From IMG/VR virus record IMGVR_UViG_3300028394_000038: a DNA stretch of 64,000 nucleotides. One strand, 5' to 3'. Below the pieces are notes generated by a model. It saw only the letters and a list, made by a program, of their open reading frames with translations, had not been told where the DNA came from and did no database searches. This document shows positions 8,113 through 42,575 of the stretch, in pieces. Origin of the DNA: a virus. Each line of letters opens with the position of its first letter. The stretch's first letter is position 1. A program made the translations under genes and the position numbers.

Positions 8113-11100
8113 ATGTCTGTGATTAGTGCTGACGCATTTAGAAGAATTGTTTTAGTTGATAACCTTGGTACGACCCAACCCGTTTTACGAGCAGATGACC
8201 GTAATGACGTATTAACAATCCGTGCAGGCACTGGCATTTCAATTCAGAAAGATGAAGGAGATGTAAACGCCGGATTTACAATCTATAATACAGGTGAGCC
8301 GGGACCTACTAGTATTGACGATATACTAGAAATTCCAACAATTGGAGAACGTCCACAACCAGCGGGCGTAAGCTGGAAGCCAATGGAGCTTGGTAAGTTA
8401 ACTGTTCAAGATTACTTGCCCGATAACCTAACAAAAACAACAAAGATGTTCTACACCGGACACGGTGTACAGGCTCCTACTAACAGTAGTCTCTCTTTAA
8501 CCGTTGCTGGAACAGGTACAGTTATTGTAGACGGCACTTCAGCATTGCGTTTGCCAGTTGGCGACATTGCTAGTCGTCCGGGAACTACAATTGGCACAGT
8601 ACAAGCAGGTCAAATACGTTTCAATTCCGAGATACCAAGATTTGAAGGCTATGATGGTCGAGGTTGGAACACGCTAGGCGGTGTAAGTAGTATTGATGGC
8701 GGTACAACTATTGCACCGGATCCTACATTACCCATACTAAACTTTAATGCTAACGGCTACCTAGTAGCCACAATGAGTAGCTTAAACACAAAAATCTTTA
8801 GTCCGGGACTTGTAATCCCAACTGGAACTACTGCTGAACGTCCGCCTGCTATTGTTGGACAGATTCGTTTCAATACGCAAAACACTCAGTTTGAAGGATA
8901 CAATGGTAGTGGTTGGTCAAGTCTAGGTGGGGTTCGAGACATTGATGGCAACACTTACATTGTTCCGGAACTAGGCCCAGGTACAAATGAAAATACCCTA
9001 TACTTTGTAACCAATGCCAATCTAGCTCTTACTCTAGACGGCAGTAGACTGTCTTTACAAAATGGTCGTTCTCTAATGTTTAGAGAAGGCATTGCCAGCG
9101 GCAATCAAACTGCAACTATTGCACCTCCAACAAATATTACATCAAGCTACACTCTTAAATTACCAACTAGTCTTGGATCAGCTGGTAGTGTATTAGGAGT
9201 TGATGGGTCAGGACAACTAGAATTTGTCAATGCCGATTCGAGTGCGGGTAGTAAGATCAACGTATCTGAACTATTTGGTGACGATAACAATGACGGGTTT
9301 AGTCGCCCTGTTAGAACACTAAAACGTGCATTGCAAATAGCATCAGGTTATGTTTATAGCCCAACATTTATCTATGAAGAGGAAGTATGTCGACGTGACG
9401 CTGGACTTATTATTGACAGTTTGGGTTGGGACCTAGTAACAGGATCCAACTGGAGATCTTTAAAGAGCGGACTTACTTATTTTAACGCCACAGCATTGCC
9501 TGTTATAACAACTCAACGTCCTCAAACAATACAGGCTGTTTCTTTCTTAAAACGAAAAGTATTAGACCTAGTAACAAGTGAACCAACAGTTACTACTACT
9601 CTTACAAGTTTATCAAATGAGATTATTGATATATTGACTAATGGCGTTGGTGCGGCAAATGCTGTATCAATGCCCGCACTAGCAGGTACACCTAGTGGTG
9701 TTGAAAACGCTAAGAACTTACTGTTATCTAACGCCAACTTCTTAGTAGCAGAAACTATTGCATGGATCAATTATCAAGCGGCAAACAATATTGCTCCATT
9801 TGACAAGAGCATTAGTTATGATGAGACTAAGTGTCGTAGAGATACTGGATTAATTTTAGATGCTGTAGGTTTTGACCTAGCACTAGGAACAAATTATAAT
9901 GCTGTAACTACTGGACTAGCATATCAACGATATTCTTATACAACACTACCATCACAAAAAACAGTAACCCTTTCTGCTATACAATTTGCAAAAACTAATA
10001 CTCTAGCACTTGCAGGAGTTAGTGCTGATGGAACTGCTACTACTAGAGCGGGTGCGGCATTTAATGAAATTATTGACATAATAACCAATGGCATAGTTCA
10101 AACAGCAACGGCCGCGGACGCATTAATATTCCCAACACCGACTGGAGCAAGTTCAAATAAAACTAATGCTAAAGATCAACTAATAGCCAATAAAGATTTC
10201 TTAAAAGCAGAAGTTATTGCTTGGTTAAATTTAAACTACCCGTCTGTTGGATTTGACCCTGCTCTATGCAGTCGAGATATGGGATACATTATTGATGCCC
10301 TATGTTATGATGTGTTGTATGGCGGCGATAGTGCAAGCATTCAAGTTGCTCAAACATATTTTACAGGCAGTGGCGCACAAGTATTACCATTGTTTCAAAG
10401 AGCCGCAACTGTGGCTGCATTTAATAGACTATCAGAAATTGCTCAACAGGTTATTATAAAAGACGAAGTAGTACCAACTGCTGGTAATACTGTCAGTCAA
10501 GATATTATTAACCCTGCAGGCACTACAACTGAATCGAATATAGTCTTTACACTGATCTCATATATTACTAGTTCTATTGCTAGTAATACAACTGCTGGAT
10601 TACCAAGTGTAACTTATCCATCAGTTACTTGGTCAGATGCCGGCCTACAAACTGCAAAGTCTGCTATTGCATCTGCTAGATCAACTATTATTAATGATAC
10701 TATTATTAATATTAACGCTAGCAACCCGTTTACCTATGACAGTGCCAAGTGTGCTAGGGATACTGCCTTTATTGTCAACTCAGTCGCATACGATTTAATC
10801 TACGGTGGTAACAGTCAAAGTCGAGATGCTGGCTTAAAATATTACAGTAATGTAACTGGTCTAACTCTAATTGGATCTCAAAATGCTCAAACTGCGGCGG
10901 CAATAGAAAGACTTAGAGCAGTTTCAATTCAAGTTGCACAAAATATTTCGATTGTTAAAACATCAGGTAATGCACAAAATCAAGTATCGGGTTCTGCAGG
11001 CAGTAGCGGTGCGGCTGCAATTATTTCAGCAAGGCTATCAGAAATTATATCAGTTGTTAGTGCTGGAACAAGTTATGCCCCAACATTGGTAGATCCAACA

Positions 11101-14100
11101 GTTGCAATAGATCCAGCATTAGGTCTCATACAAACAAAATTAGACAATGCTAAAGATCGTATTGCTGATAACGTAGTTGCGTTTACTAGCAAATATAAAC
11201 CAAATGGCAAGAAGATTGTTGTACAAGTTGCGGCCGGTAACTATGTTGAAGACAATCCAGTTATCATTCCAGACAATACAAGCGTACTAGGCGCAAGTCT
11301 TCGTGCCTGTGACATTCGTCCGTTAAATGCTAACCAAGACATGTTCCGTTTACGTAACGGTGCATACTTTGGTGAGTTTACTTTCCGAGATGCAGTTGAT
11401 GCGAGTGGCGTGCCAACATTCACTTTTGACTACGCTACTTCGTTTGATGATGCTACTGACATTTACACTAGTCGTCTTGGTTATACTAATATGCCTATTA
11501 GTAAACCTATTATTACTGTATCTCCATATATTCAAAACGTTTCCATCTTAAGTTTCTTAGGTGGTAACGGCGCAAAGGTTGACGGTAACCTAGTTGAAAC
11601 TCCTAACATTCCGTTGATTAGAGAAACTGCTGAATTCCCATTAAGTGGTCCAGCACCTGAACAAGGTAAGTCATTTGTTGCTAACGCATTTACCACATTG
11701 AGCTTTGGCGGTACTGGCTGGCGTATTATTAACGATGCCTATGCTCAGATTGTGTCATGCTTCCAGATTTTCATGTTGAACGGTTCGTATGCTCAGTCAG
11801 GCGGATATCTATCTGTTACTAACTCTGCTACTAACTTTGGTATCTATGCGCTTCGTGCATCTGGTTACAGCCCAAATGCATTTGCCTTTGACAAAGGTTA
11901 TATTGCATCAACTGGAACTAGCAACAGTAAACAGACTCTTACTACTCTAGGATTTGGTCGTGCGCCAACACAAGATTATGTTTTAAGATTTAGAAGCCCC
12001 GACTATAAGGTTGCCTATGACTTATTGTTAGCCAGCAAACTTGCAATACAGAACGCAACTATAACTTGGATTAATTTAACATATCCAAGTTTAACATATA
12101 ACAATGCAACTTGTTTTAGAGACGTTGGCCTGATCATCGATGCTGTTGCTTATGATACCTTCACTGGTGGTAACAGCAAGAGCGTAGAAGCCGCTACAAG
12201 TTACTATAAAGGCTCTACATCTAGTCAAATAGTTATAACTGGACAACTAACTGAAACTATTGCGGCAATTAATTATGCTAGAAGTCTAGCGTTGACTGCT
12301 GTTTCTAATAGCGGACTAGGCACATATGTTGGTAGTAAGTTTGATATTATTACCAACGGCCTTGCAGACCCAGCGGGAGTTCCTGTATCAGTTGGCTACG
12401 GTAATATTGGTGATATTACCAACAACTACAAACCGGCGGCAGTTAGTGTATCATTTGATGCGGCAGTTAATATAAATCCCGCCCTTGACACTATTACCAT
12501 TAACGCACACGGATTCACAAACGGTCAAGCAATTGTTTATCACGCAAATGACAATCCAGAAATTCCAGGATTAAACAACGAGCAAACTTACTATGTCAGT
12601 TATGTTGACCTTGATACCATTCGATTGACATTTGACGAAGGCGGAACTGTTTCTGTAGACATTAGAGCCACAGGTGTTGGTACACATTTCTTCTTTAAAA
12701 ATATTCAAGAGTTCTTTGTTGATGAAATACTTGAAAGTCATAACACCTATCAAGAACTAACTCTACAAGCTGGCTCATATAACTTTGTGCCAGGTAGTGA
12801 AATTACTGGCGTAACTGGCACTTCTAGTAACAATGCATTTGTGTATAGTTATGATCCAGTTAGCTATAAACTAGTTGTTAGTCTAAACAAAGTTACTGTT
12901 GGTGCAAGTATTATTCGAAATGCCTTTGCGGCCAACAGTACTATTAATTCAGATAACGGTGCACCTGCTACAACAAATATTGTAGTAAGTGATGTACTTG
13001 CTATCAATACATTATACTCTGCTAGATTTAGCGTACAGGGCACAACTGGAAACGGTCTACTAACTAACCTAGGTAATCTTCCAAATAAACAAATTTGGCT
13101 ACATCGTCCAAGTATTGTTAACAGTTCTGGACACACTTGGGAATATGCTGGATCGGGTGTTGACTACAATGCCCTACCACAAAACGGTGGACAAAGTATT
13201 TTCAAATATGAACAGTACAGTGATTTGCCAGGTCGAGTTTACTCTTCAGGTACTAACGAACTAGGTGACTTTAAAGTTGGTGACTTCATTAAGGCTGAAA
13301 ACAAAACTGGTAATGTTAGCTTTACCAACAAGGTATCAGTTGCACAGTTAGATGCACTACGTCTAGCGGTGGGTAATATTGTTATTGACTTTATCAGTGA
13401 TGACGTTGACCTAGGTGATAATGAACCAGGTGGCGCAAGTAACAGTCGTCTAACAACACAGTTAGCCATTCGTACATTCTTATCAAACAGACTAGGCGGA
13501 TTCATTGACAAGGCTGTAAGTACCAATGCTGTACCGGGTGCGGTTATTCAGTTGAATAGCTCAGGTCAGATTAATCCAGACTTGTTGCCTGCGGTCCGTG
13601 CCTTCAACTCAGCTAAGAGCAAGGGCTTCTATAGCAGACTAAGTCTAGTTGAAGAAGTACCTGCCTACGATTTCCTAAACGGTGACATTGTAACTGAAGA
13701 ATATGCCACAGTACAGTTGACATTAAGTGCGGCAATTTCAGCACCTGTTGGTTCACTAGTTGTTCAAGCAACTACAGGCGCCAGTGGTTACCTAATTGGC
13801 GATGTACTTGCTGAAACAGTTATCACAGTTGCCAGTGTGGGCGCATCTTTTAGTGCGGCATTTAATACTGTAGATAATTTAACAGTAGCCGGTGATGCTA
13901 CACCTTCTACAGGCAACGGAGTCGTAAAGCCAAACTTGGTAGGTACTGTGGCTAGTAACGTGCCTGCAAACTTTGTATTGTCAAATGCCAATGAAGGGCA
14001 ATATTTAAATCTACGTGCAGATCAAAGTTACAGCTTTACCAACGGCACAATTGTTACCAGTGCTAATGATAACGTACAAGGTACTGTTACATCTACAAGA

Positions 14101-17100
14101 TTTGGAGTATTAGATACTGTAGACAACGGAAGCATTACTCCAGGAACATTGTATACTCCACTATCTGGATCAGTTACTTACTCTTACGTTGCACTAACTA
14201 ATATTTCAGGAAGTGGTACTGGTGGTATTGCAGATATTACTGTAACCAATGGTGCTGTTAGCAGTGTTGACTTACGTAGAGGCGGTACCGGTTATGCTGT
14301 AGGAGATGTTCTATCAGCGGCTAGCGGTACCATTGGCGGAACAGGTAGTGGCTTCAGAATCCCAGTAACTGGTATCGAACAGCGTGTATACCTTAGCTTG
14401 CTAGGTGGTGAAAGATTTACAGCTACACTAGCAAGTCCAAACTTTATTGCTGATAATAATGCTCCAGTAAAAGCAATAACTGCTACCGGTACATCTACAA
14501 AAACATTTAGTGCTAATTCAATTGGTGGTAATGTAAACTATGTTACCAGTCGAATCACTATTACCGGCCACACATATGCAGACGGCGATCCAGTAAAATA
14601 TGTCAGCAGTCCAAACACTGCTATTGATCCGTTGGTCAATGCCGAAGTCTATTATGTAAATGTTTATGATGCTAATACCATTGAGCTGTACGAAGACTAT
14701 GCGTTGATACAAAAAGTTGTATTTACAAGTTCAAGTACTGGTAATCATACTCTAACAATCTTTAATGCCAACGTAATTGATAACTCATTCTATTATGCGG
14801 CACATGGATTAACTACAGGTGACCCATTAAGACTAACAGGATCAAGTTTACCATTAGTCGGCGGCTCTGCTATTGTTACTGGTACATTCTATTTTGCCGG
14901 TTCAATAACTGCAAACTCATTTACTATCCATGCATCAAGAAGTGAAGCATTAGCAAGTATTAACGGTCTTGTAACTAATAAAATTGTGTTCACTACTACA
15001 GGTAGTGGTACACTGACATTTACCAAACAGAACGTACAGGTATTTGGAACTGTAAACACTAGTTCTACAAACAAAGACAACTGGAGCTCATTGAGTGCTA
15101 CCACTATTGATGCTTCAAGCATTACCGGTGGCGTTATCTCAACAAGTCGTTTAGCAGGTACTGGTAGTGCTAATGATACTACATTTCTACGTGGTGATAG
15201 TTCATGGCGCACAGCAGTTCAAAGTATTAGAGAAGTCAACACACCGTTGACATTTACTGGTTCTTATAATACCGTTGGTAGTAACAATTATTACTATGGC
15301 GATGTACAATTAGACATTGAAAAGGTTGACAGCAACAGTGGAGACGACAACTACACTAATCTAGGTGTTGCTAAATTCCGTAAGACACAATTTGCTGTTG
15401 GAACTAGTGTTGCGGCCGGCGAAGTTTATATTAAAGACGGCGTAGTTGATGCAGGTACCTTAGACAGTTTAGACAGCGCATACTTTTTAAATCCTGCTAA
15501 CCTAACTAGTAACGTGCCTGTTACACGTGGCGGAACTAATATTAGTTCGTATGCTGTGGGTGATTTATTGTATGCTAGTGCTACTAGTATTTTAAGTAAG
15601 GTAGCGATTGGGCCAGCTAATACCATATTAACCAGTGACGGCACTAAGCCTGCTTGGAGATCTAGTCTAACAGTTGACGGTGCATTGACTGTTGGCAGTC
15701 CGGCAGAACAAGCTCTTATTGTTACAACAGGCGGAGCTAACATTGGCGGCAACTTGTGGGTTGGTAAAAATGGGTACATAACAGGCGATTTGAATGTTAC
15801 TGGTAATGTAAACATTAAAGGTTCAATACTAACTATTAATTCAACTACAGTTAACGTTGACGATAAGAATATTGAATTAGGCAGTGTATCTACACTATCA
15901 GATTTATCGGGTACTATTAGTGGAAACATAGTAGCAGGATTAATAGACACGTCCGGATTAACTAGCGGAATGAGATTAGTTAAAACTACTGGTGCCGGGG
16001 CATTTGGTGGTATTACTGTTATCAATACTATTGTTAACCCGACAACAATTACTGTAACCCCAACAACTGCAAACACAGATGGTACTATCACGTTTGATGT
16101 ATTAACCGCAACTAATGCCACAGCAGACGGTGGCGGCATTACACTAAAAGGTACAACTGACAAAACATTCAATTGGGTCAACTCAACTAGCGCATGGACC
16201 TCAAGTGAGCACATGAACCTTGCCGCTGGTAAAGAATATCGAATTGGTGGTATAACTGTACTAACAAGTGCAAGAGTATTAGGCAAGCTACCAGGCGGAA
16301 CTACTACTGGTGACTTGGTTGATATTGACAGCACACAAACATTAACTAATAAAACCCTAACTAATCCTATAATTAGTGGAACAACTACCAGCATTACTAA
16401 CATTGGCACATTAGCAATAAGAGATGCCAGTGCGGCTTTTGATGTAACACTTGCGGCCAACAGCTCAACTGCGCTAACAGCAGGTCGTACATTAACCCTT
16501 GACATGGTCAATGCGGCAAGAACTATTAAGCTAGGCGGCAATTTAACTCTAGCCAATAACTTTACAACTGTTGGCAATGCTATAACATTAACAGTAAGTG
16601 GTGCAACTAACGTTACAGTACCAACTACAGGTACATTGGCTACCTTAGACGGTACAGAAACATTTACTAACAAGACACTAACAAGTCCAGTGATTGGTAC
16701 TATTGTTAATACAGGTACATTGACACTGCCAACAACTACAGATACTATTGTTGGTCGTGCTACTACTGATACACTATCTAACAAGACCTTGACATTACCT
16801 AAGATTAATGACACAAGTTCAGACCATACATATAATTTTGCAGTCAGCGAGTTAACGGCTAATAGAACTATAACCTTGCCACTATTAACAGGTAATGATA
16901 CGTTTGCGTTTATTGGTCAAACTCAGACATTTACTAACAAAACATTTACTGATGCTAGTACTTACTTCCAAGACGAAGCTGATAATCTTAAAAAATTACA
17001 GTTTCAACTAAGCGGAATTACTAGCGGAGTTACTCGTACATTAACTATTAATGATGTTAGCGGAACTATTGTAACAACAGGCGACACTGGTTCTATTACC

Positions 17101-18798
17101 AGCACCATGATTGCCAATGACACTATTGTTAATGCTGATATTAACTCGGCGGCTGCTATTGCCTATAGCAAACTAAGTTTGGGTAATAGTATTGTTAATG
17201 CAGATGTAAGTAGCACAGCGGCAATTGCCTATAGCAAATTAAGTTTAGGTAATAGTATTGTCAATGCTGATGTAAGTACTAGTGCGGCGATTGCTTATAG
17301 CAAACTAAACTTATCAGCAAGTATTGTTAATGCTGACATTAGTGCAAGTGCGGCGATTGCAACAAGTAAAATTGCTGGCTTGGCTGCTTCAGCAACTACT
17401 GACACAACTAATGCAAGTAACATTACAAGTGGGTCATTACCAAACGCACGTTTAACTTACAGTAGTATTACTATTGGTACTACTCCAATTAGCTTAGGAT
17501 CGTCAAGTACAACACTAGCCGGATTGACTAGTGTAACATCAACAACTTTTGTCGGAGCATTAAGTGGTAATGCTACTACAGCAACCAACGGAGTCGTTAC
17601 TACAGGTAGTTATAGTGACCCAAGTTGGTTAACAATTAGTAAGAGTAAAGTTGGTTTAGGTAACGTTGATAATACTGCTGATGCAAACAAATCAGTTAAC
17701 TATGCTACTAGCGCAGGTAGTGCCTCAGCAAATGACGTATATCCTTGGGCCAAGTCTTCTACTAAGCCAAGCTATACTAAATCAGAAGTTGGGTTAGGAA
17801 ATGTTGACAATACCGCCGACGCTAATAAATCAGTGAGTAATGCAACTACGGCTGGTGGTTTAGCAGTTGCTACTGGTCGAAATAATAGTGCTAATCAAAT
17901 TGTTCGCACTGATGCTAATGGTTATTTACAAACAGGCTACATCAACTCTAGCAACGGTGACGAAGGCAACAACAGTAGCCCAAGTAGAGTCTGGGGTACA
18001 AATGGTAGTGATAGTTATTTACGAACATACTTAACTAGTGCGTTAAGTGTTAGTTATGCGGCAACAGCAGGTAGTGTAAGTGGTACTGTAGCTAATGCAA
18101 CTAACGCAACTAATGCAACTAACGCGACTAATGCAACCTATGCACGTTATGTTTATGATAACGGTGCCTACAGCGGCGGTGCCGCTTATAGAGAACCATC
18201 TGGTATGTACGTTGTTTATGCGGCATCGGCAGGCAGTGCACCGGCTAGTGACGTTTACTCTTGGGCTAAACAACCTAATCCGCCTGCGGCAGGTACTGCA
18301 ACTTATGTGGGAGCCAGCGGATATACTGCGGTGTCAGGAGTTGTTACTATAGCAGGCAGTGGCGATACTAGTGTTACACAAAGTGGTAATACAATTACTA
18401 TTAGCTCCAATACCACTGCGGTATATGCGGCTGACTTAGCTGAGAATTATCAAGCTGATGCGGTCTATGAGCCTGGAACTGTACTAATGTTTGGTGGAGA
18501 GTTTGAAGTAACTGTAGCCGATGAAGATACTATTCGAGTCGCTGGTATTGTTTCCACAGACCCAGCTTACCTAATGAACATTGGGTTAGAGGGCGATAAG
18601 GTAGTTGCTCTAGCATTGACTGGTCGAGTGCCATGTAAGGTTAAGGGCAAAATACGCAAGGGCGATATGCTAGTTTCAGCTGGTGGCGGATATGCCCGTG
18701 CTACTGATAACCCAAGATTAGGTGCAATTATTGGTAAAGCTCTAGAAAACTTTGACGGTGATGAGGGTGTTATCGAAGTAGTTGTAGGAAGAATTTAA
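8113..18798 (+). CDS. giant virion/tail-fibre protein 1 (3561 aa): beta-helix core, five CxRD helical repeats, fibre repeats, C-terminal chaperone-like domain
   Basis: T/S/G/N/V-rich. Pectin-lyase-like motifs (GDDNNDG..P..T..RA, VAAGNYVEDNP, SPYIQN), TLTNKT repeats, two VGLGNVDNT motifs, C-terminal ADLAENY...GRVPCKV...GAIIGK. Confidence 0.85.
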   Translation: MSVISADAFRRIVLVDNLGTTQPVLRADDRNDVLTIRAGTGISIQKDEGDVNAGFTIYNTGEPGPTSIDDILEIPTIGERPQPAGVSWKPMELGKLTVQDYLPDNLTKTTKMFYTGHGVQAPTNSSLSLTVAGTGTVIVDGTSALRLPVGDIASRPGTTIGTVQAGQIRFNSEIPRFEGYDGRGWNTLGGVSSIDGGTTIAPDPTLPILNFNANGYLVATMSSLNTKIFSPGLVIPTGTTAERPPAIVGQIRFNTQNTQFEGYNGSGWSSLGGVRDIDGNTYIVPELGPGTNENTLYFVTNANLALTLDGSRLSLQNGRSLMFREGIASGNQTATIAPPTNITSSYTLKLPTSLGSAGSVLGVDGSGQLEFVNADSSAGSKINVSELFGDDNNDGFSRPVRTLKRALQIASGYVYSPTFIYEEEVCRRDAGLIIDSLGWDLVTGSNWRSLKSGLTYFNATALPVITTQRPQTIQAVSFLKRKVLDLVTSEPTVTTTLTSLSNEIIDILTNGVGAANAVSMPALAGTPSGVENAKNLLLSNANFLVAETIAWINYQAANNIAPFDKSISYDETKCRRDTGLILDAVGFDLALGTNYNAVTTGLAYQRYSYTTLPSQKTVTLSAIQFAKTNTLALAGVSADGTATTRAGAAFNEIIDIITNGIVQTATAADALIFPTPTGASSNKTNAKDQLIANKDFLKAEVIAWLNLNYPSVGFDPALCSRDMGYIIDALCYDVLYGGDSASIQVAQTYFTGSGAQVLPLFQRAATVAAFNRLSEIAQQVIIKDEVVPTAGNTVSQDIINPAGTTTESNIVFTLISYITSSIASNTTAGLPSVTYPSVTWSDAGLQTAKSAIASARSTIINDTIININASNPFTYDSAKCARDTAFIVNSVAYDLIYGGNSQSRDAGLKYYSNVTGLTLIGSQNAQTAAAIERLRAVSIQVAQNISIVKTSGNAQNQVSGSAGSSGAAAIISARLSEIISVVSAGTSYAPTLVDPTVAIDPALGLIQTKLDNAKDRIADNVVAFTSKYKPNGKKIVVQVAAGNYVEDNPVIIPDNTSVLGASLRACDIRPLNANQDMFRLRNGAYFGEFTFRDAVDASGVPTFTFDYATSFDDATDIYTSRLGYTNMPISKPIITVSPYIQNVSILSFLGGNGAKVDGNLVETPNIPLIRETAEFPLSGPAPEQGKSFVANAFTTLSFGGTGWRIINDAYAQIVSCFQIFMLNGSYAQSGGYLSVTNSATNFGIYALRASGYSPNAFAFDKGYIASTGTSNSKQTLTTLGFGRAPTQDYVLRFRSPDYKVAYDLLLASKLAIQNATITWINLTYPSLTYNNATCFRDVGLIIDAVAYDTFTGGNSKSVEAATSYYKGSTSSQIVITGQLTETIAAINYARSLALTAVSNSGLGTYVGSKFDIITNGLADPAGVPVSVGYGNIGDITNNYKPAAVSVSFDAAVNINPALDTITINAHGFTNGQAIVYHANDNPEIPGLNNEQTYYVSYVDLDTIRLTFDEGGTVSVDIRATGVGTHFFFKNIQEFFVDEILESHNTYQELTLQAGSYNFVPGSEITGVTGTSSNNAFVYSYDPVSYKLVVSLNKVTVGASIIRNAFAANSTINSDNGAPATTNIVVSDVLAINTLYSARFSVQGTTGNGLLTNLGNLPNKQIWLHRPSIVNSSGHTWEYAGSGVDYNALPQNGGQSIFKYEQYSDLPGRVYSSGTNELGDFKVGDFIKAENKTGNVSFTNKVSVAQLDALRLAVGNIVIDFISDDVDLGDNEPGGASNSRLTTQLAIRTFLSNRLGGFIDKAVSTNAVPGAVIQLNSSGQINPDLLPAVRAFNSAKSKGFYSRLSLVEEVPAYDFLNGDIVTEEYATVQLTLSAAISAPVGSLVVQATTGASGYLIGDVLAETVITVASVGASFSAAFNTVDNLTVAGDATPSTGNGVVKPNLVGTVASNVPANFVLSNANEGQYLNLRADQSYSFTNGTIVTSANDNVQGTVTSTRFGVLDTVDNGSITPGTLYTPLSGSVTYSYVALTNISGSGTGGIADITVTNGAVSSVDLRRGGTGYAVGDVLSAASGTIGGTGSGFRIPVTGIEQRVYLSLLGGERFTATLASPNFIADNNAPVKAITATGTSTKTFSANSIGGNVNYVTSRITITGHTYADGDPVKYVSSPNTAIDPLVNAEVYYVNVYDANTIELYEDYALIQKVVFTSSSTGNHTLTIFNANVIDNSFYYAAHGLTTGDPLRLTGSSLPLVGGSAIVTGTFYFAGSITANSFTIHASRSEALASINGLVTNKIVFTTTGSGTLTFTKQNVQVFGTVNTSSTNKDNWSSLSATTIDASSITGGVISTSRLAGTGSANDTTFLRGDSSWRTAVQSIREVNTPLTFTGSYNTVGSNNYYYGDVQLDIEKVDSNSGDDNYTNLGVAKFRKTQFAVGTSVAAGEVYIKDGVVDAGTLDSLDSAYFLNPANLTSNVPVTRGGTNISSYAVGDLLYASATSILSKVAIGPANTILTSDGTKPAWRSSLTVDGALTVGSPAEQALIVTTGGANIGGNLWVGKNGYITGDLNVTGNVNIKGSILTINSTTVNVDDKNIELGSVSTLSDLSGTISGNIVAGLIDTSGLTSGMRLVKTTGAGAFGGITVINTIVNPTTITVTPTTANTDGTITFDVLTATNATADGGGITLKGTTDKTFNWVNSTSAWTSSEHMNLAAGKEYRIGGITVLTSARVLGKLPGGTTTGDLVDIDSTQTLTNKTLTNPIISGTTTSITNIGTLAIRDASAAFDVTLAANSSTALTAGRTLTLDMVNAARTIKLGGNLTLANNFTTVGNAITLTVSGATNVTVPTTGTLATLDGTETFTNKTLTSPVIGTIVNTGTLTLPTTTDTIVGRATTDTLSNKTLTLPKINDTSSDHTYNFAVSELTANRTITLPLLTGNDTFAFIGQTQTFTNKTFTDASTYFQDEADNLKKLQFQLSGITSGVTRTLTINDVSGTIVTTGDTGSITSTMIANDTIVNADINSAAAIAYSKLSLGNSIVNADVSSTAAIAYSKLSLGNSIVNADVSTSAAIAYSKLNLSASIVNADISASAAIATSKIAGLAASATTDTTNASNITSGSLPNARLTYSSITIGTTPISLGSSSTTLAGLTSVTSTTFVGALSGNATTATNGVVTTGSYSDPSWLTISKSKVGLGNVDNTADANKSVNYATSAGSASANDVYPWAKSSTKPSYTKSEVGLGNVDNTADANKSVSNATTAGGLAVATGRNNSANQIVRTDANGYLQTGYINSSNGDEGNNSSPSRVWGTNGSDSYLRTYLTSALSVSYAATAGSVSGTVANATNATNATNATNATYARYVYDNGAYSGGAAYREPSGMYVVYAASAGSAPASDVYSWAKQPNPPAAGTATYVGASGYTAVSGVVTIAGSGDTSVTQSGNTITISSNTTAVYAADLAENYQADAVYEPGTVLMFGGEFEVTVADEDTIRVAGIVSTDPAYLMNIGLEGDKVVALALTGRVPCKVKGKIRKGDMLVSAGGGYARATDNPRLGAIIGKALENFDGDEGVIEVVVGRI
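17125..17373 (+). repeat. intragenic 66-nt (22-aa) tandem repeat, 4 copies: IVNADxxxxAAIAYSKLSLGNS
   Basis: Copies start at 17125, 17191, 17257 and 17323. Confidence 0.9.
18094..18138 (+). repeat. 9-nt (NAT) tandem repeat, 5 copies
   Basis: aatgcaact aacgcaact aatgcaact aacgcgact aatgcaacc. Confidence 0.85.
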
Positions 18799-18801
18799 AC
18801 G

Positions 18802-18808
18802 ATAAATA
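18802..18808 (+). promoter_or_regulatory. T4-like late promoter box
   Basis: ATAAATA in the intergenic gap before 18827. Confidence 0.65.
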
Positions 18809-18826
18809 TTCTAAAGAGAACTGATT

Positions 18827-20350: not shown

Positions 20351-20359
20351 CCACAATCG

Positions 20360-20387
20360 TTGACTTTGTCTAATAAGAGTGTATAAT
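20360..20387 (+). promoter_or_regulatory. sigma70 promoter of queD
   Basis: TTGACT (20360-20365), 16-bp spacer, TATAAT (20382-20387). Confidence 0.7.
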
Positions 20388-20403
20388 TATTAGACACACA
20401 CAA

Positions 20404-20448
20404 AGAGGACTCTATGGCATCATCCCTCTATAAACACTCTGCAGTCAT
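20404..20448 (+). ncRNA. candidate preQ1-I-like riboswitch aptamer in the queD leader
   Basis: P1 stem AGAGG (20404-20408)/CCTCT (20425-20429), C immediately 5' of the 3' strand, then ATAAAC. Possible pseudoknot ATGGC (20414-20418)/GTCAT (20444-20448). Sits upstream of queD. Confidence 0.5.
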
Positions 20449-20480
20449 CAAACTTGCTACCTTAATAAAGGAGACTAGAG

Positions 20481-20996
20481 ATGGCAAAATTTTATTCAAC
20501 AAAAACTTACGGCAACGATAGGGGTCTATCATGCTGTTTCAGACAGTGGAGAGCGACCCATAGTCACTGCTCAACACTTCACGGATACTCAATCGGTATT
20601 AAACTAATATTTGAATGCGACACACTAGATGACAAAAACTGGTGTATGGACTTTGGCGGTCTTAAAGAATTCAAAGCATGGGCAGATCATATGTTTGATC
20701 ACACTTTGGTGATTGCTATTGATGATCCTATGATGCCTTTTTTCAAACAAATGGCCGCACAAGTCAACATGAGCTCTGAAGATCCTTCTAGCATTATTCC
20801 TCACAAACGTGGTGCTATTTGCGATATTAGAGTAGTAGATGGCGTAGGCTGTGAAATGTTTGCCAAAATGGCGTATGACAAAATGGCTGAACTTTTGGCT
20901 AGTGGCGATATGCGTTACCCAATTAACCCGACAGTAAGAGTTAAATCAGTTGAAGTATTTGAACACGGTGCTAACTCAGCTACATACGAAGGTTAA
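20481..20996 (+). CDS. queD: 6-carboxy-5,6,7,8-tetrahydropterin synthase (QueD/PTPS family)
   Basis: HCSTLHGYS, MDFGGLK, FDHT, terminal EVFEHGANSATY. AAGGAG RBS. Confidence 0.88.
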   Translation: MAKFYSTKTYGNDRGLSCCFRQWRATHSHCSTLHGYSIGIKLIFECDTLDDKNWCMDFGGLKEFKAWADHMFDHTLVIAIDDPMMPFFKQMAAQVNMSSEDPSSIIPHKRGAICDIRVVDGVGCEMFAKMAYDKMAELLASGDMRYPINPTVRVKSVEVFEHGANSATYEG

Positions 20997-21008
20997 TAAT
21001 CTTTGGAC

Positions 21009-21037
21009 TTGACCTAAATAGGCGTACATGCTATAAT
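21009..21037 (+). promoter_or_regulatory. sigma70 promoter with extended -10
   Basis: TTGACC (21009-21014), 17-bp spacer ending in TGC, TATAAT (21032-21037). The spacer also contains TAAATA. Confidence 0.75.
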
Positions 21038-21068
21038 GCTGTATGTCTATTTTTTTTGATTGGTAACT

Positions 21069-22097
21069 ATGATTAAGCGTATTGGATTTGCTTGTAAGTG
21101 GATTGATGGTCCTAGCCAAATTAATGGCATTAAACAAACGGATACAGCTAAACAATACAACACAGGTACCACAACAGTAGCATGGCTTAAACGCCAAACA
21201 CGTGACGTAGCAGAACAAAAACTATGGGACTTAATGGTAAGTAACATACAAGCTACACAAAAACTCGTAGATCGAGTAGGAGAGTTAAATGAAAATCTTA
21301 GGATGGTTCGTCTTAGTAGTGATATTCTTCCTGTATACACTCAACCCGACTTTAGCTACTTCTGGCGAAGAGCCGATGTTATTGACTATCTCGAGCGCAA
21401 TTTTATCCTTGTTGGCAATAGTGCTCGCGCAAGCAATACCCGTCTTTCTATGCATCCTGGTCAGTTTACTGTTCTTGCTAGCGTTGATCCGGGCATTGTT
21501 CAACGATCGATAGAGGAATTTGAATATCATGCTGATATGGCAAAATGGATGGGTTTTGGCCGCTCCTTTCAGGACTTTAAGATCAACGTCCACATATCGG
21601 GTAGAGCCGGTCCCGAAGGTATTAGAAATGCCTACAAAAGACTTACCCCCGAAGCCCGGAATTGTATTACAATTGAAAACGAAGAAAACTCATGGGGGTT
21701 AGATGATTGCACTAGTCTTGGAGACATATTGCCTATTGTGCTTGATATACATCATCACTGGATTCGCGAAGGCGAGTATTTACTCCCCACCGATGATCGT
21801 GTTAGCAAGGTGCTTGATAGTTGGCGTGGCCTCCGCCCTACTATGCATTATAGCCTTAGTCGTGAAGATGTTATTATGGGGCATTCAACTACCAGTAGGC
21901 CAGACATGGCAACACTACTACTAGAAGGCTACAAAAAGCAAAAACTCAGAGCGCACTCTAACTTTTACTGGAATATTCCGGCAAATGAATGGGCTTTGAG
22001 CTTCTGGGATCGCTTTGATATCATGTGTGAATCTAAAGCGAAAAACCTAGCAAGTGCTAGGCTATTCGAACAAGCTGAAGAACTAGGTCTTATTTAG
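21069..22097 (+). CDS. uvsE: UV DNA damage endonuclease (UvsE/UvdE family)
   Basis: RIGFACK, RLSSD, RLSMHPGQF, IENEE, LDIHHH, RAHS and MCESKAKNLA motifs. Confidence 0.93.
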   Translation: MIKRIGFACKWIDGPSQINGIKQTDTAKQYNTGTTTVAWLKRQTRDVAEQKLWDLMVSNIQATQKLVDRVGELNENLRMVRLSSDILPVYTQPDFSYFWRRADVIDYLERNFILVGNSARASNTRLSMHPGQFTVLASVDPGIVQRSIEEFEYHADMAKWMGFGRSFQDFKINVHISGRAGPEGIRNAYKRLTPEARNCITIENEENSWGLDDCTSLGDILPIVLDIHHHWIREGEYLLPTDDRVSKVLDSWRGLRPTMHYSLSREDVIMGHSTTSRPDMATLLLEGYKKQKLRAHSNFYWNIPANEWALSFWDRFDIMCESKAKNLASARLFEQAEELGLI

Positions 22098-22326
22098 GTG
22101 CTTTTGGAGCACGTGGCTTTTTAGCAGCCGGTGCTTTCTTAGCAGCCGGCTTTTTCTTGGCTGGTGCTTCAGCCACTACCGGGATTGCTTCTGCTATAGG
22201 AGCTACTTCCACTGCTGGTGCTACTTCAACTACTGGTGCTACTTCAACTTTATACTCAGCTACTGGAGCTGGTGTCTCTACAACTGCTGGTTTGCCTGTA
22301 AAGAACTCTTTGATTGCTTTGAACAT
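22090..22326 (-). CDS. small protein with V/E/A/P repeats and a basic PAAKK tail
   Basis: AGGAGG RBS and TATAAATA (22350-22357) on the minus strand. VEVAP repeats, histone-H1-like C-terminus. Confidence 0.75.
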   Translation of the reverse strand: MFKAIKEFFTGKPAVVETPAPVAEYKVEVAPVVEVAPAVEVAPIAEAIPVVAEAPAKKKPAAKKAPAAKKPRAPKAPK

Positions 22327-22352
22327 TTGAATGTCCTCCTTTGTTAGTTTAT

Positions 22353-22640
22353 TTATAATCTGCTAATATCATTTAGACTGCTAACGGGCGTATCCCATAT
22401 GTGTTTACGCTCTACACCGCGTTTTTGGGCAAACCGTTTACTGTCACAATTTTTACACACGTGAAAATAGTTATTACTTAATCTAGCGGGATCCATTGAC
22501 CCTTTTGGCCTAGTAAAAATCTCCTTGCAGTTATCACAGCGCAATACTACTATAGATCGTTTACGTTCGTATTCGTGTTTATGCCCTAGCTTACTAGTTC
22601 GTTCGTGTGTGGTTTTTTCTATATCTATTTTGATGAACAT
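22353..22640 (-). CDS. putative zinc-ribbon protein
   Basis: CDNC...CKNC, basic. TAAATA box 6 nt upstream of the ATG on the minus strand. Confidence 0.7.
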   Translation of the reverse strand: MFIKIDIEKTTHERTSKLGHKHEYERKRSIVVLRCDNCKEIFTRPKGSMDPARLSNNYFHVCKNCDSKRFAQKRGVERKHIWDTPVSSLNDISRL

Positions 22641-22646
22641 ATAGTG

Positions 22647-22682
22647 TATTTACATTAAGGTTATAAAACGGAAAGATAAATA
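22647..22682. promoter_or_regulatory. divergent late promoter pair
   Basis: TAAATA on the minus strand (22647-22652) and ATAAATA on the plus strand (22676-22682). Confidence 0.6.
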
Positions 22683-22710
22683 TCATATACAAGACTTATT
22701 GGAGCATTCA

Positions 22711-25700
22711 ATGGCACGTAAAATAGTAGACATCGGCGTAGAAGGTAATGACGGAACTGGTGATAGTATCCGCGAAGGTTTTAGAAAAACCAACGAAAAC
22801 TTTAAAGAAATATACGCTGTATTTGGGCAAGAAGGTACATTAGCATTTTTAAACTTAGGCGATGTAGAAGCCGGACAGCTTAAGAATTATTCTGCCATAG
22901 CTAATCAATTCCCTGTTGTTAACAATCAAGGGTCTGGAATTAAGTTCAAGCCCTTAGTAGGTGCTGCCGGTTTAACTATTACGTATCCAGATGATCCTGC
23001 CGATCCCAACTATAACAAAATTGTTCTAACACAGCAACGAGCTGTAGCAGAATTAGGCTCTGCCGATGCGGCTGGTAAATTTGGCAATTCTGTTGATGGA
23101 CAAGGATTTGTCTTTGGAAATATTGCAGATCCTACACAAGCTAATGTATTAAATTGGAATACTGCTTTTGATCGTCACGGTCAAACTGTTATTGGGGCTG
23201 AAAAGTTTCCGGTTCCGTTAGGATTTGCAGACAATAGGTACATTAATAAAGGTACAATACCGGGCGAAGTTGCTGATGCAATGGTAGGTTATCTTTCTGT
23301 TCCAGCAGGCGCAACGGGTGATCAAGTGCCGCAGGCCGCTGAAACTGTTCTAAAAGCCGGCGCTACAATGACCGGTAAACTATTCCTAAGTGATCATCCG
23401 GGTGATCTAGCAGGCGCAGGTAATCCAATTGGACTCGATGATAAGCAAGCGGCTACCAAATATTATGTAGATACAACTGCATATTCAAGTAAAGTTAATT
23501 TGTATGTTAGTACCAGCGGCGATGACTCACAACGCAAAACTCCAGTGGGGAAAGAAGGCCGAGCATTTGCTTATGCCTATGCTAGTCTAGTTGCGGCTTG
23601 TTTAAAAGCTGAACAGCTTATTGACGAAAGTCCATGGGAAACTGGCCCATATCGTCAGTTAATTGCTTACGGTGGAGCAAAATACTATTCAGAAATTACG
23701 CCAGGCGGTATTATTATTGGTGGCGGGTTAAACGGAACTACCCGTATTAAATTCACTAACGACAGCGGTAGCCCAGTTGATCAAGGTATTGCAAACAATA
23801 GAGATATTATTCCAGGCAAACTAGTAGTTGGTCGTAATAGCGGAGCAAGAGGTTTTATTGTAAAATATGGAACAATTGATAATACTGACTATGTTGACCT
23901 ACGAGATGTAACTGGATCATTCTCAGTTGGTGAAAACTTATTCTTTGACCAAGCTGTTAAGCGTTTAGAAATTTCTATCTTTATTGAGTCAGGTAATTAT
24001 TATGAAGATTATCCAATTCGTATTCCGCGTAACTGTTCTATTCTAGGTGATGAATTTAGACGTACAGTTATCCGCCCTGCGGATCGAATAAGTAAAAGCC
24101 CATGGGCTGGTACTTGGTTCTATCGTGATCTAGAATTTGATAACCTAGCTATTGCAGAAACAAATTGGGGATATCATTATCTATCAGACCCAACTAACAA
24201 GGCATCAACTCCAAAAAATAACAAAGACTTAGACGTATTCTTATGTAATGATGCTACTATTATTCGTCAGATCAGTTGTCAAGGTCACGGTGGATTCATG
24301 ATGGTGCTTGACCCTAACGGTCAAATTTTAACCAAGTCACCTTACTGTCAACAGTCAGGTTGCTTCTCCGGGTCATTAAACAAACAAGCATTCCGCGGTG
24401 GTCAATATGTTGACGGGCAAGCAGGAAGTATGCCTGTAACTTCAGTTAGTACTAATTCAGATAAAACTGAAATTACAGTTACTGATGCATTCCGTATACC
24501 GCAAACTCCTACTGCATTCTTTGTTAAAGGTAAACGCTATAAGATTGATACATTTACTGATAACGGTTTAGGATATCGAGGTGCTAGAGAATTACTAATA
24601 GCAAACAAAGAATTTATTGTTGCAGAAACTATTGCCTATATCAATGATGTCATTACTCCAACTTTTACATATGATGCTGTTAAATTTAGTCAAGCTGTAG
24701 GAAATATTATCAATGCAGTTGCATGGGACGTAGTATTTGATAGTAATATTCAATCTATTTTAATAGCCGAAGAATATTATGTAAGAACCAAATACACAAC
24801 GTTCCCTTCAGAAAAAACACAAACACTAGCCGCTCTTAATTATGTAAAAGATTCTCTAGTAGCACTACTATCAACTAATGCAACAGCGGCAGCCCGTGCT
24901 AGTGCAAAAATGGATATAATATTACAAATCCTTACTAGCGGTGTCAATGACCGTAATATTTTAGATGCAAGCTCATGGACTTATCTTGGCACCACTATTA
25001 CTGTAACAAAATCTGGTGGTCATGGATTGGGTGCAGGCTGGTCAGTTAAAATTGTAGATGCTACTGCAACAACCAATGCCCCTAACGGTATATTTAATGT
25101 TGCATCTATTGTTGATGCTAATACATTTACATATACTGTTACTAATGCTCCGACTGGTACTGCTGGTGGTAACATTAGATTTACCAGCTCACCAATTCCA
25201 ATTAGATCAATTCCTAACCCGCCTGTAGATCCACAGGCATTGCCTGCTACTACATTAGGCATTCAAAATAGTCTTGCATTATTAATTGCTAATAGAGAAT
25301 TAATTAAAGCTGAATACATTGCCTACATTCAAACTTATTATTCCGATTTCTTATTTGGAACTATCGGGGTTGCTGGTTATATTAGAGATGCTGACAGAAT
25401 CGTCAACGCAGTAATATATGATTCTATTTACGGTGGCACTAGTCAAAGTGTGTTAGTGTCTAACAACTTCTTTGATGCTGAAGGCAAATCAACAATATCC
25501 ACTGAAGTTACACAAATATATAATGCATTAGAATGGATTAGAGATGTTGCCAAACAAGTAGTCACTAATACAGAAATTACCGGTTTGTTACAAGTATCTA
25601 TTAGACAAGCTAGAGGAACTGCAGGTACTTTAGAAATTGCTACACTTGTAGAAGATAATTTTAATTCTGTTGTTACTGCTATTAGATTTGGTGCTGACAC

Positions 25701-28700
25701 ACTGCCTGCTGTGTCATATCCAAGTATTGAAAATGTTGTTACAAGTTTACAATCAGCAAAGAGTTTATTAGATATAAATTCAAATAATATTCGTTCAAAT
25801 ACTATTTCGTTTATTAATAACAAATATTTGTACGATGTGGCAGCGGCACAACGAGATATTAGATTCCTAGTAGATGATCTAGCGCACGATATTGTCTACA
25901 CTGGCGATTTAAAAATGGTAGAGCACGGTCTAGGATACTTTGTTGGAGATGCTAAACTTGTTAGTGACCCTGAACGCCCAAGAACACTGGCTATTCTTGA
26001 TTACATAAAACAATTAGCATTGGCTATTGTTGACAACGTTTCTATTCCAAACCCACAGTTGACCAAGGTCGGAAGTTTAATCATTGGACAAACTTACAAA
26101 ATTAATACTGCCGGATCAACTATTTGGACCGCATTGGGTTCTGCAGATAATTTACACAATACAGTCTTTACTGCAACTGCCACCGGTACAGTAAATGCCA
26201 CTCAGATTACTGTTGGTCGTACTTATACTATTGTATCAAGAGGAAGTCCAACTAATTTAACTAATTACATCAGTATTGGTTCTTCAAGTAATGCTGTAGG
26301 AACTTCATTTATTGCCAATGCTGTAGGAACTGGTACCGGCACTGTTGTACAAGGAACAGGAGATGCTAGACTTGCTAGTGGCAGTGATTTCTATAGAAGA
26401 CAATTTGGTATTAGTCAAACAATACAATTAATTTCAAGCGGTGCTGGTCCTTCTACTATTGTACCGAGTTTAACATGGGTTAATACTAACCTAGTAAATG
26501 CTTTCCAAAAATTGCAAGACACTAAAGAAGTTATTCAATCAGCAGTCATTACTTGGATCAATAACAATATAGCATCAAACGTTACTAATCCAAATAGCAT
26601 ATGGTACGGCTTCGCTTACAATAGCGGAACTTGCAGTCGAGATGTAGGATTAGTTGTTGATGCCGTCGGTTACGATATGATGTTTAACAGTAACTTCCGT
26701 AGTAGTAAAGCTGGTATGGCTTATTACAGGGGAGTTGCTAGTGCCGCTATAGTAAGAGACAATCAATTGTCTGCAACAATAGCGTCATTTGCTTATCTAA
26801 AAAATTATCTATTGTCAACTATTACATCTGCTGCCTATGGTAATACGGCTAATACTAGAGTTGGCGATAAGATGGATGTTGTTATATCAATTCTTACCGA
26901 CGGCCTTAGTGCAGTTCCTGCATTTGTATTACCGGATCCAACAGGTTTTGATATCGACTATAGTAATGCTAGAAGACTAATTAGCGATAATAAAGCGTTC
27001 ATTGTTGATGAAATTACATCATGGATTGCCGCACAAATAGTTGGAAACATTACGCCGTTCACTACACAGTTCCAATACAACTCAGCAAAGTGTGCTCAGG
27101 ACGTTGGATACATTATTGATGCTATTCGTTATGATTTAACATATGGCGGAAATTTAGAAACTCTTGTTGCGGCCAATGCATACTTTGTTGGTGCTGACAC
27201 AACATTAGGTACAGACCAAAAAGATAAAACTATTGCCGCATATGCTCGCTTAAAAGAAATTATTGGCAAGGTAGCACAAGCTGTCCAAGTATTAGATAAG
27301 AATACAGCTCTTATACAAACTACCGCAGTAAGCGGTGGTGGTGCAAGTACATCAGTAGCATTTGCTCAAGCTCGTGTTCAAGATATTATTAAACAAATTA
27401 ATATTACAGCCGTTGATAGTAAACCTCAATTAGAATATTTGATTGGCACTACTAGAACAATGGTTGCTAATACTAAACCAACGGGGTATGTATCTGCTAA
27501 AAACTTATTAGTAGCTAACCGTGCATTTATTCAAGCTGAAGTGTTTAACTACTTAAAGAATACTTACACCTTTACTATTACACAATCAACTAACAATCAA
27601 TTTGTAACAGCTAGTACTGCTAAAATGAGAGTTGGCATGCCGGTTAAGTTTCTTGGTACTGACCCGTTTCAACAAACAATTTTATCAGCATCAACTCCGC
27701 TACTAGTAGACGGCAAGTATGTAGTTACTTTTGAATTTGTAAGACAAAGAGTTAGACCAGATTCAACAAAAGAATACGAGGTTCAAGGCAATGCTAATGG
27801 CCTATACAATTTAATTGTACCAGTTGCTGTTGTACCTGATCAATCAACTACTGATACTACAACTACTAGTATTACAGTAGTATATCCGTTTAATCCAGGT
27901 GTGTTCGATTATGCTAATCAAACAACTATTCGTGTGTCAGGCGGAACATTTGGTGGCGTAAACCGCGATGCCAAATACTATGTTAAACAAGTTGTTAGCG
28001 GAACTAATTTTACAATATCAGAAACAATTAGTGGCGGAACTCCTGGATCACTATTTTCAGTAGATAGTGATACCGGAACAATGTATTGCTCGTTTGCATT
28101 TGATGAAGCTACCTGCAGAAGAGATACTGGATTCTTAGTTAGCAATATTTCTACTGATATATTATACGGTGGAAGATATAATACTATTAAGTCTGGTAAG
28201 AGATACTTAGTTGCAAGTTCTGTATTAGTTGTAACAGAACAAAGTGTTGAGTGTCGAGCCGGTATTAGTTACATTGACACGCTAGCACAACGTATTATTA
28301 ACAATCAAGCACCGTTGGTAAATTATCAAACTTTGAATAATGTTAACCCTAACGATTTTGTTGCTCAAGTTTTTGATACTAATGCTACTGGTGGTAGTGC
28401 CGCTGGCGCCACAATTAATGGGCTAGTCGGGTTAGTAAACGATATTATTTTAAACGGAAAATTATGGGCTGACAGTATTAGTAATATTCCAGATGCTGTA
28501 GTATATCCAAAATATGTTTTACAATTAAATCAAGATACTCCATATAATACATATTTGTCTGGACCATTGCCAGACGAACTAGTTCTACAAGCGGCAGGTA
28601 ATACAAGTATGTTGTCTAATGACTGGACACAGTTAAACGACTTAGCCTATGGTCTAGTTGCTACAAATAACGGATTGATTGAAACAGTATCAGTGTTTAC

Positions 28701-37688: not shown

Positions 37689-37699
37689 CGGAGAATAAA

Positions 37700-39406: not shown

Positions 39407-39434
39407 CAATAAATACAGCATATAGGATAATAAT

Positions 39435-42548: not shown

Positions 42549-42575
42549 TAAATACTTAATCAAGGATACTATAAC

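Follow-up and report, generated by a model that had tools for sequence, protein, structure and literature searches.

Tandem phycobiliprotein-like domains with a putative chromophore site in giant tail fiber and baseplate proteins of phages

Introduction

Can the fibers of a virus particle carry pigment? The question is raised by a 64,000-nucleotide stretch of viral DNA (IMG/VR record IMGVR_UViG_3300028394_000038; hereafter the window), in which two genes encode giant proteins, here called proteins 1 and 2, that contain copies of a helical repeat. An earlier reading made from the sequence alone, which we call the sequence-only reading, counted eleven copies, likened a Cys-x-Arg-Asp motif present in most of them to the bilin site of phycocyanin, and proposed that the repeats are globin-fold domains on the virion that may bind a tetrapyrrole for UV screening, light sensing or redox protection.

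Our analyses strongly support the structural part of this proposal: the repeats are domains of ~130 amino acids with the globin fold of phycobiliproteins, minus the N-terminal X-Y hairpin, joined by short linkers. Whether the domains also carry a chromophore is a question on which we reach a more tentative answer.

Results

We built a profile (A2) from an alignment of 99 diverse repeat units, chosen from 307 units of 36 IMG/VR contigs. Searched with this profile, the two giants contain exactly 11 units, five in protein 1 and six in protein 2, with domain E values of 1e-27 to 3e-51 (Table 1), and every copy counted by the sequence-only reading was recovered. The cysteine codons also lie where that reading had placed them, at 9388, 9832, 10267, 10750 and 12112 in protein 1 (residues 426, 574, 719, 880 and 1334) and at 26632, 27091 and 28114 in protein 2 (residues 1312, 1465 and 1806), as do the three copies of protein 2 that lack cysteine, at 24685, 25378 and 25846 (residues 663, 894 and 1050). 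Adjacent copies in the tandem array of protein 1 are 148, 145 and 161 amino acids apart, in agreement with the proposed spacing, and cysteine is indeed rare in both giants, accounting for 9 of 3561 residues in protein 1 and 18 of 4727 in protein 2.

Aligned with one another, the units of the window have a mean column identity of 32%, and Cys-x-Arg/Gln-Asp is retained in eight of the 11. The pattern C-x-[RQ]-D occurs five times in protein 1 and three times in protein 2, compared with means of 0.03 and 0.06, respectively, in 2000 shuffles. The motif of the fourth unit of protein 1, KCARD, is identical to a pentapeptide in phycocyanin alpha, and the CXQD variant seen in the fifth unit of protein 2 also occurs in photoglobins (PMC10151467). 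The sixth unit of protein 2 gives two matches to the A2 profile (positions 12–52 at E 1e-7 and positions 5–148 at E 7e-30) and, to judge from these matches, is probably in two parts with inserted sequence in between; the first helices are encoded at 27442–27600 (residues 1582–1634) and the remainder lies within 27916–28455 (from approximately residue 1800). The inserted stretch lies in the B-E loop, ahead of the cysteine-bearing helix, and is likely beta-rich.

Are these units related to phycobiliproteins? Protein 1 matches the Pfam family PF00502 (Phycobilisome protein) with 32.6 bits summed over its units, above the cut-off of 22.2. Taken singly, units of the window score just under this cut-off (21.0, 18.6 and 17.6 bits), the 21.0-bit match being that of the second unit of protein 1, which covers positions 35–151 of the 155 in the profile at E 3.5e-4; in the nearest relative, one stretch reaches 23 bits. 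PF00502 is the only family that recurs among the matches of the 99 single units, nine of which reach E ≤ 0.01 against it, and a precomputed match to it is carried by many of at least 493 homologs of the giants in public metagenomes. When all PDB sequences were searched with the A2 profile, approximately 30 of the 33 matches at E ≤ 10 were phycobiliproteins, nearly all of them phycocyanin alpha chains. In the best match (E 4e-4), the unit motif falls on Lys83-Cys84-x-Arg86-Asp87, and this profile alignment bears out the ungapped correspondence to Cys84, Arg86 and Asp87 of phycocyanin alpha that the sequence-only reading had pointed out. Single-sequence searches of the PDB with two units returned nothing meaningful. 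The ESM Atlas yielded no usable match.

Structure prediction gave the same answer. An AlphaFold2 (AF2) model of the second unit of protein 1, made with the 99-unit alignment, is all-helical, with a predicted local distance difference test score (pLDDT) of 87.4 and a predicted template modeling score of 0.84. Every top Foldseek match listed for this model is a phycobiliprotein or a fluorescent protein of phycobiliprotein origin (template modeling scores of 0.56–0.68). VIA-align, a structure comparison independent of Foldseek, ranked allophycocyanin first (Z 14.2, root-mean-square deviation 2.0, 116 amino acids) and the bilin domain of ApcE second (4xxi_A, Z 13.9), with the ApcE chains 7eyd, 7sc7 and 9wg7 at Z 12.6–13.3; photocobilins (~11), sensor globins (~10) and hemoglobins (6–7) ranked lower. 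Residues 1–130 of the model superpose on phycobiliprotein residues 36–159, from helix A/B to helix H, at Z 12–14. Among the outcomes that the sequence-only reading had named as speaking against it were a non-globin fold and a lack of profile similarity to phycobiliproteins; the fold that we obtained is that of a globin, and the profile similarity is present.

Several observations place both giants in the virion. Protein 2 begins with a domain similar to T4 gp9/gp10 (PF07880, E 1.7e-7, 31.9 bits against a cut-off of 25, residues 7–53), which by this similarity likely serves for attachment to the baseplate. In PHROG, protein 1 matches phrog_5342, annotated as "tail fiber protein" (E 6e-206). Both giants also match phrog_4527, annotated as "short tail fiber protein," and in protein 1 this match lies over unit 5. 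Homologs in cultured phages, S-PM2 and P-HM2 among them, are annotated as tail fiber, short tail fiber or baseplate proteins. In 500-day chemostats of phage S-PM2d, the giant ORFs 088 and 218 gained strongly selected non-synonymous mutations during host-phage coexistence, most of which recurred across replicate chemostats (PMC9910659); these ORFs are the two unit-bearing giants of that phage. The location of the unit arrays in two giants of the baseplate and tail fiber apparatus is thus strongly supported. With Pfam, the PDB profile search, AF2, Foldseek, VIA-align and PHROG in agreement on phycobiliprotein-type globin domains in virion proteins, as the sequence-only reading had held, we are highly confident both that the units are homologous to phycobiliproteins and that the proteins that contain them belong to the particle.

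The two giants share more than their units. Protein 1 has a fiber-type region at its N-terminus, followed by four tandem units, a beta-rich domain and the fifth unit; a long shaft rich in Thr, Ser and Gly leads from there to a C-terminal domain. By BLASTP, residues 1034–1390 of protein 1 match residues 424–717 of protein 2, and a segment related to the beta-rich domain thus precedes the first unit of protein 2. Homologs of this domain are present in many related loci; the copy in protein 1 has no Pfam match and no PDB sequence match, and its AF2 model (residues 1020–1300) was unusable, with a pLDDT of 41. The C-terminal domain of protein 1 is 47% identical to residues 4546–4726 of protein 2 (window 36334–36876), matches phrog_22593, a family without an assigned function, and has no relative among PDB sequences. 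In the N-terminal region of protein 1 (window 8600–8930), the motif G-Q-I-R-F-N...F-E-G-Y-x-G-x-G-W-x-x-L-G-G is present in two copies, and phrog_6005, "virion structural protein," matches the same region (residues 233–317). Although protein 2 is counted here from a TTG, its true start is probably the ATG at 22711.

How well is the putative chromophore site conserved? Of the 307 units, 94% keep the cysteine and 87% keep Arg-Asp, with a mean column identity of only ~13%, and a lysine precedes the cysteine in 58%. Among 215 unique units, the arginine is kept in 180 of the 200 that have the cysteine, compared with 3 of the 15 that do not. When the cysteine losses are taken as roughly a dozen independent events, Arg-Asp is kept in about half of them. 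Globins with a CXRD motif are known outside phycobilisomes, and two of these from heterotrophs, the bilin biosynthesis-associated globins (BBAGs) BBAG-1 and BBAG-3, need no lyase to bind bilins (PMC10151467).

The nearest record to the window, a 121-kb IMG/VR contig with a completeness rating of 33%, points to a jumbo phage with a genome of ~360 kb. The other genes of the window are closest to those of PA5oct-, Atu_ph07- and XaC1-type jumbo phages of heterotrophs, and the DNA of the window recurs in freshwater lake metagenomes. Neither psbA nor hli was found in the window or in the related contigs, which are up to 167 kb long. The domain family extends well beyond this phage. In a search of 1.84 billion proteins, the unit profile matched 1,689 cluster representatives at E ≤ 1e-3 and 731 at E ≤ 1e-30, some of them with up to 35 units. 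Where arrays occur, 2–35 units stand in tandem within virion proteins of 2000–7000 amino acids. The sequence-only reading had mentioned similar repeats in giant structural proteins of cyanophages, and the profile finds them in cyanomyoviruses: 11 units in S-PM2, five in P-HM2 and 2–14 in 13 others, with KC[KRE]RD motifs present. Of 50,697 phage records, 57 match the repeat region of the window, all of them cyanophages; megablast of this region against the same records gave no match. No cellular relatives were detected among 185,579 prokaryote genomes in two pattern scans, which used a few exact peptide patterns and were of limited sensitivity. Only four short stand-alone homologs were found, mostly fragments, and no such family emerged. 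A tblastn search with a segment of the S-PM2 giant (461 records) was unusable for listing unit-bearing phages, as its matches arose through a fiber domain in the query that is not phycobiliprotein-like. Our literature search found no published report of phycobiliprotein-like domains in phage structural proteins.

If the units bind bilins, does their distribution follow that of CpeT, a lyase homolog encoded by cyanophages? Of 20 complete cultured genomes searched with the unit profile and the Pfam CpeT family (PF06206), 15 contain both units and CpeT (S-PM2, P-HM2, Syn1, S-CAM3, S-WAM2, ACG-2014h, S-RIM32, S-SCSM2R, P-SSM4, S-RIM8, S-RIM2, P-RSM4, S-ShM2, metaG-MbCM1 and S-SCSM1), five contain neither (P-SSM2, S-SSM7, the pelagiphage Mosig, P-SSP7 and P-GSP1) and none is discordant. 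The uncorrected chance of this pattern is 1 in 15,504, but the absences probably represent approximately three independent events, so that it carries far less weight than this figure suggests. In the phages of one large clade (S-PM2, Syn1, S-RIM32, S-CAM1/3/4, ACG-2014e/h/j, S-WAM2, S-RSM4 and S-H9-1), cpeT and the giant gene share a strand, with cpeT 0.7–4.5 kb upstream. P-SSM4 (AY940168.2, 16642–17064), S-RIM8, S-RIM2, P-RSM4, metaG-MbCM1 and S-ShM2 have short (~150 amino acids), divergent CpeT-like ORFs that score above the Pfam cut-off; tblastn with the CpeT of S-PM2 missed these ORFs. A 2010 review reported that cpeT was not found in P-SSM4 (PMC2984593).

The distribution of units also matches that of reported light-dependent adsorption. 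Darkness prevents the adsorption of P-HM1, P-HM2 and S-PM2 but not that of P-SSM2, P-SSP7 and P-GSP1 (Liu et al., 2019; PMC6628666). For S-PM2, this dependence on light is independent of host photosynthesis, and light-sensitive host receptors or phage tail fibers have been suggested (PMC6628666). Units are present in all three light-dependent phages and in none of the three that adsorb in the dark. With six phages, two of them podoviruses and two close relatives, this match is a lead rather than a test.

Table 1. Positions of the two giant genes of the window and of the domains within them
Feature	Position	Strand	Basis and remarks
Giant fiber protein 1	8113–18798	+	3561 aa; ORF and translation
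Protein 1, unit 1	9271–9693	+	Cys426, VCRRD; A2 profile domain E 9e-35; N-terminal helices match poorly
Protein 1, unit 2	9652–10128	+	Cys574, KCRRD; A2 profile E 6e-39; unit used for the AF2 model
Protein 1, unit 3	10111–10581	+	Cys719, LCSRD; A2 profile E 3e-51
Protein 1, unit 4	10591–11061	+	Cys880, KCARD; A2 profile E 7e-43; alone 17.6 bits against PF00502
Protein 1, beta-rich domain between units 4 and 5	11170–12012	+	BLASTP
Protein 1, unit 5	11968–12420	+	Cys1334, TCFRD; A2 profile E 2e-43
C-terminal domain common to both giants	18268–18795	+	BLASTP; phrog_22593
Giant fiber/baseplate protein 2	22699–36882	+	4727 aa counted from TTG; ORF
Protein 2, gp9/gp10-like domain	22717–22857	+	Pfam PF07880
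Protein 2, unit 1	24532–25011	+	Motif wholly lost (F-S-Q-A); A2 profile E 2e-34; alignment
Protein 2, unit 2	25225–25686	+	Cys replaced by Tyr, Arg-Asp kept (YIRD); A2 profile E 8e-28; alignment
Protein 2, unit 3	25693–26184	+	Cys replaced by Ala, Arg-Asp kept (AQRD); A2 profile E 2e-31
Protein 2, unit 4	26443–26931	+	Cys1312, TCSRD; A2 profile E 8e-40
Protein 2, unit 5	26911–27408	+	Cys1465, KCAQD, Arg replaced by Gln; A2 profile E 6e-43
Protein 2, unit 6	27442–28455	+	Cys1806, TCRRD; two A2 profile domains

The genes around the giants include further candidates for the adsorption apparatus. Downstream of protein 2 (36894–43586) lie four genes that probably encode receptor-binding or baseplate proteins; among the products are a protein with a BppL_N match, one with an Mtd_N-like start and a 1037-amino-acid protein with He_PIG Ig domains and a CBM_5_12 carbohydrate-binding module. 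Close upstream of the gene for protein 1, with one gene between, lies a gene for a 2OG-Fe(II) oxygenase (5882–6448); in S-PM2, such a gene (S-PM2p220; 3808–4389 of the S-PM2 locus L132) lies directly upstream of the giant gene, after cpeT. The oxygenase might modify fiber proteins, or its proximity might be coincidental, since cyanophages carry several such genes. Farther along the window is a set of chaperone and protease genes (Cpn10-like, 44608–45006; DnaJ, 53220–54050; ClpA-like ATPase, 54102–56354), together with genes for a MazG-like PRA-PH protein (45003–45368), a 7Fe-type ferredoxin with DUF3470 (46891–47214) and, on the minus strand, PhoH (48057–48812). An ORF of 172 amino acids (43829–44347) matches only positions 16–94 of a DNA polymerase III alpha NTPase domain (E 1.4e-9) and may be a fragment or part of a split gene. 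In the RefSeq record of S-PM2 (NC_006820.1), 16 tRNA features are placed inside the 3779-amino-acid "short tail fiber" CDS at 165928–177267 and share its locus tag; since the frame of this CDS is open throughout, the tRNA coordinates look displaced.

Discussion

What kind of protein are these units? We regard them as a phage-borne branch of the bilin-binding globin fold rather than as phycobiliprotein subunits in the strict sense: the X-Y hairpin is absent, the domains do not occur as free subunits, and their bilin is putative. With phycobiliproteins they share a globin-like fold, a K-C-x-R-D motif in helix E at the place of Lys83-Cys84-x-Arg86-Asp87 and detectable profile similarity, and in sequence they are closest to the alpha chains of C- and R-phycocyanin. 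However, phycobiliproteins are free subunits of 160–180 amino acids, with an X-Y hairpin for alpha-beta pairing, that assemble into the phycobilisome discs of phototrophs, whereas the units are arranged in tandem within fiber proteins and are encoded by phages, including phages without the hallmark genes of cyanophages. In ApcE, the second-best structural match, a domain of the phycobiliprotein fold likewise forms part of a far larger protein with several domains, and no separate lyase is needed to attach the bilin. ApcE contains a single such domain, uses another cysteine and is part of the phycobilisome, whereas the phage fibers use arrays with the equivalent of Cys84.

The BBAGs are paralogs of phycobiliproteins outside phycobilisomes, some of which bear CXRD and bind bilin covalently without a lyase (Rockwell, Martin and Lagarias, 2023; PMC10151467). 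By motif and fold, the units are likewise CXRD-bearing globins paralogous to phycobiliproteins, a likeness drawn from the description of BBAGs rather than from direct sequence alignment. The BBAGs differ in being single-domain cellular proteins of non-photosynthetic bacteria; their genes lie beside those for heme oxygenase and bilin reductase, whereas no heme oxygenase or bilin reductase gene was found near the phage genes. Giants of T4-like cyanophages (for example, S-PM2p091, the 3779-amino-acid S-PM2 protein and PHM2_096), annotated as "short tail fiber," "tail fiber" or gp7-like baseplate proteins, contain the same domain family. The hosts of these cyanophages are bilin-rich cyanobacteria and all of these phages encode a CpeT-like protein, whereas the phage of the window is a jumbo phage of lakes in which no CpeT was found.

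If the fold is that of bilin-binding globins, do the units bind bilin? We tentatively favor the reading that they are chromophore-bearing, possibly light-responsive fiber modules, while holding it with somewhat less than even confidence. The arrays would then serve as shaft modules and chromophore carriers alike. As the particle is assembled inside the infected cell, a thioether would form between the K-C-x-R-D cysteine and a linear tetrapyrrole (bilin), whose pyrrole nitrogens and a propionate would be held by the aspartate and arginine in the manner of the Cys84/Arg86/Asp87 site of phycocyanin. Attachment may be aided by the T-type lyase CpeT where the phage encodes one; elsewhere, the units may attach their bilin autocatalytically, like the CXRD-bearing BBAGs. 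A pigmented fiber could respond to light in a way that favors adsorption in daylight, and the three cysteine-less units of the window's phage would have a structural role only. Such light-gated adsorption fits the indirect evidence better than UV screening or redox protection, neither of which has support.

We rank this reading slightly above a purely structural one, which we consider nearly as likely: a captured phycobiliprotein or BBAG-like globin may have been multiplied as a helical spacer or "bead" that lengthens and stiffens fibers, with K-C-x-R-D and the invariant residues kept for folding or packing between domains and with no chromophore. The free variation in unit number, from 2 to 35 per protein, is what would be expected of length-setting modules. 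This and a number of other observations weigh against a pigment. In the window, three of the 11 units lack the cysteine and one lacks the whole motif, yet these units persist. The most conserved residues of the family, an aspartate at Cys+14 (99%) and a tyrosine at Cys+30 (92%), have no counterpart in phycobiliproteins and point to constraints of the units' own; like the asparagine at Cys+20, they are not residues of the phycobiliprotein pocket. In true phycobiliproteins, the X-Y hairpin, the B-E loop and the partner subunit help to form the chromophore pocket. The units have no such hairpin, for which their ~146-amino-acid period leaves no space (the Pfam alignments begin at profile position 35–36), and their B-E loop is approximately 11 residues shorter than that of phycocyanin. 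The sequence-only reading had also asked for a search for genes of bilin synthesis and attachment, which came back empty: neither a CpeT-type lyase nor a bilin reductase turned up in the window or the 36 related contigs, which are all fragments (the largest of 167 kb, ~46% complete), and no heme oxygenase was detected in the window or the five largest of these contigs, the only ones searched for it. As the nearest cultured relatives by other genes infect heterotrophs, the supply of bilin to the window's phage is uncertain, and the case for a pigment is weaker there than for the cyanomyoviruses. Even among cultured phages, P-SSM2, S-SSM7 and the pelagiphage Mosig encode a bilin reductase and have no units, whereas S-PM2, for all its units, has no gene for a reductase or for heme oxygenase. 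We rejected, as a general rule, a role of the units as acceptors of phage-made bilins, since units and bilin-synthesis genes do not track one another; in cyanophage infections, bilins come from the host anyway. Another 80 viral contigs, gathered through the bilin reductase of Mosig, measured 4–37 kb, too short to bear on co-occurrence. Finally, the correlations with CpeT and with light rest on few independent lineages.

What keeps the chromophore in contention is the behavior of the motif. It is hard to ascribe to packing alone a single unpaired cysteine that is retained so widely, in an extracellular protein whose sequence has otherwise diverged so far, and the loss of this cysteine is accompanied by loss of the arginine. 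The co-occurrence of units and CpeT in cultured cyanomyoviruses is perfect and the genes are often adjacent. Moreover, all CXRD globins tested to date bind bilin (PMC10151467). It is also conceivable, but in our view improbable, that Cys-Arg-Asp serves some other chemistry, such as the binding of heme or a metal as cofactor, or the cross-linking of chains or units, covalently or in a redox-sensitive way, to lock the fiber. Neighboring globin families bind heme through the same general fold, covalent cross-links are known in phage particles such as HK97 capsids, and the oxygenase genes near the giants in the window and S-PM2 hint at post-translational chemistry of fibers. However, the consensus of the units has no conserved equivalent of the proximal histidine, the closest globins in both sequence and structure bind bilin rather than heme, one conserved cysteine per unit excludes a disulfide within the unit, and the linkage to CpeT points to bilins.

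In its fullest form, the chromophore reading would make some phage particles pigmented photoreceptors, in which bilins attached by CpeT to arrays on fibers and baseplates gate adsorption to daylight, including in lake jumbo phages with other sources of bilin. We consider this extended version unlikely as it stands, although it would account for the light-dependent adsorption of S-PM2 and P-HM1/2.

If the domains do carry bilins, these phages would provide the first chromophore-bearing, light-responsive virus particle, and two old puzzles would become testable: the substrate of the CpeT lyase homolog of cyanophages, and adsorption that takes place only in light and is independent of host photosynthesis. 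Even without a pigment, a family of ~1,700 sequence clusters with up to 35 units per protein represents a second, large life of the phycobiliprotein fold outside photosynthesis. The existence of so large a phage family also bears on the origin of phycobiliproteins.

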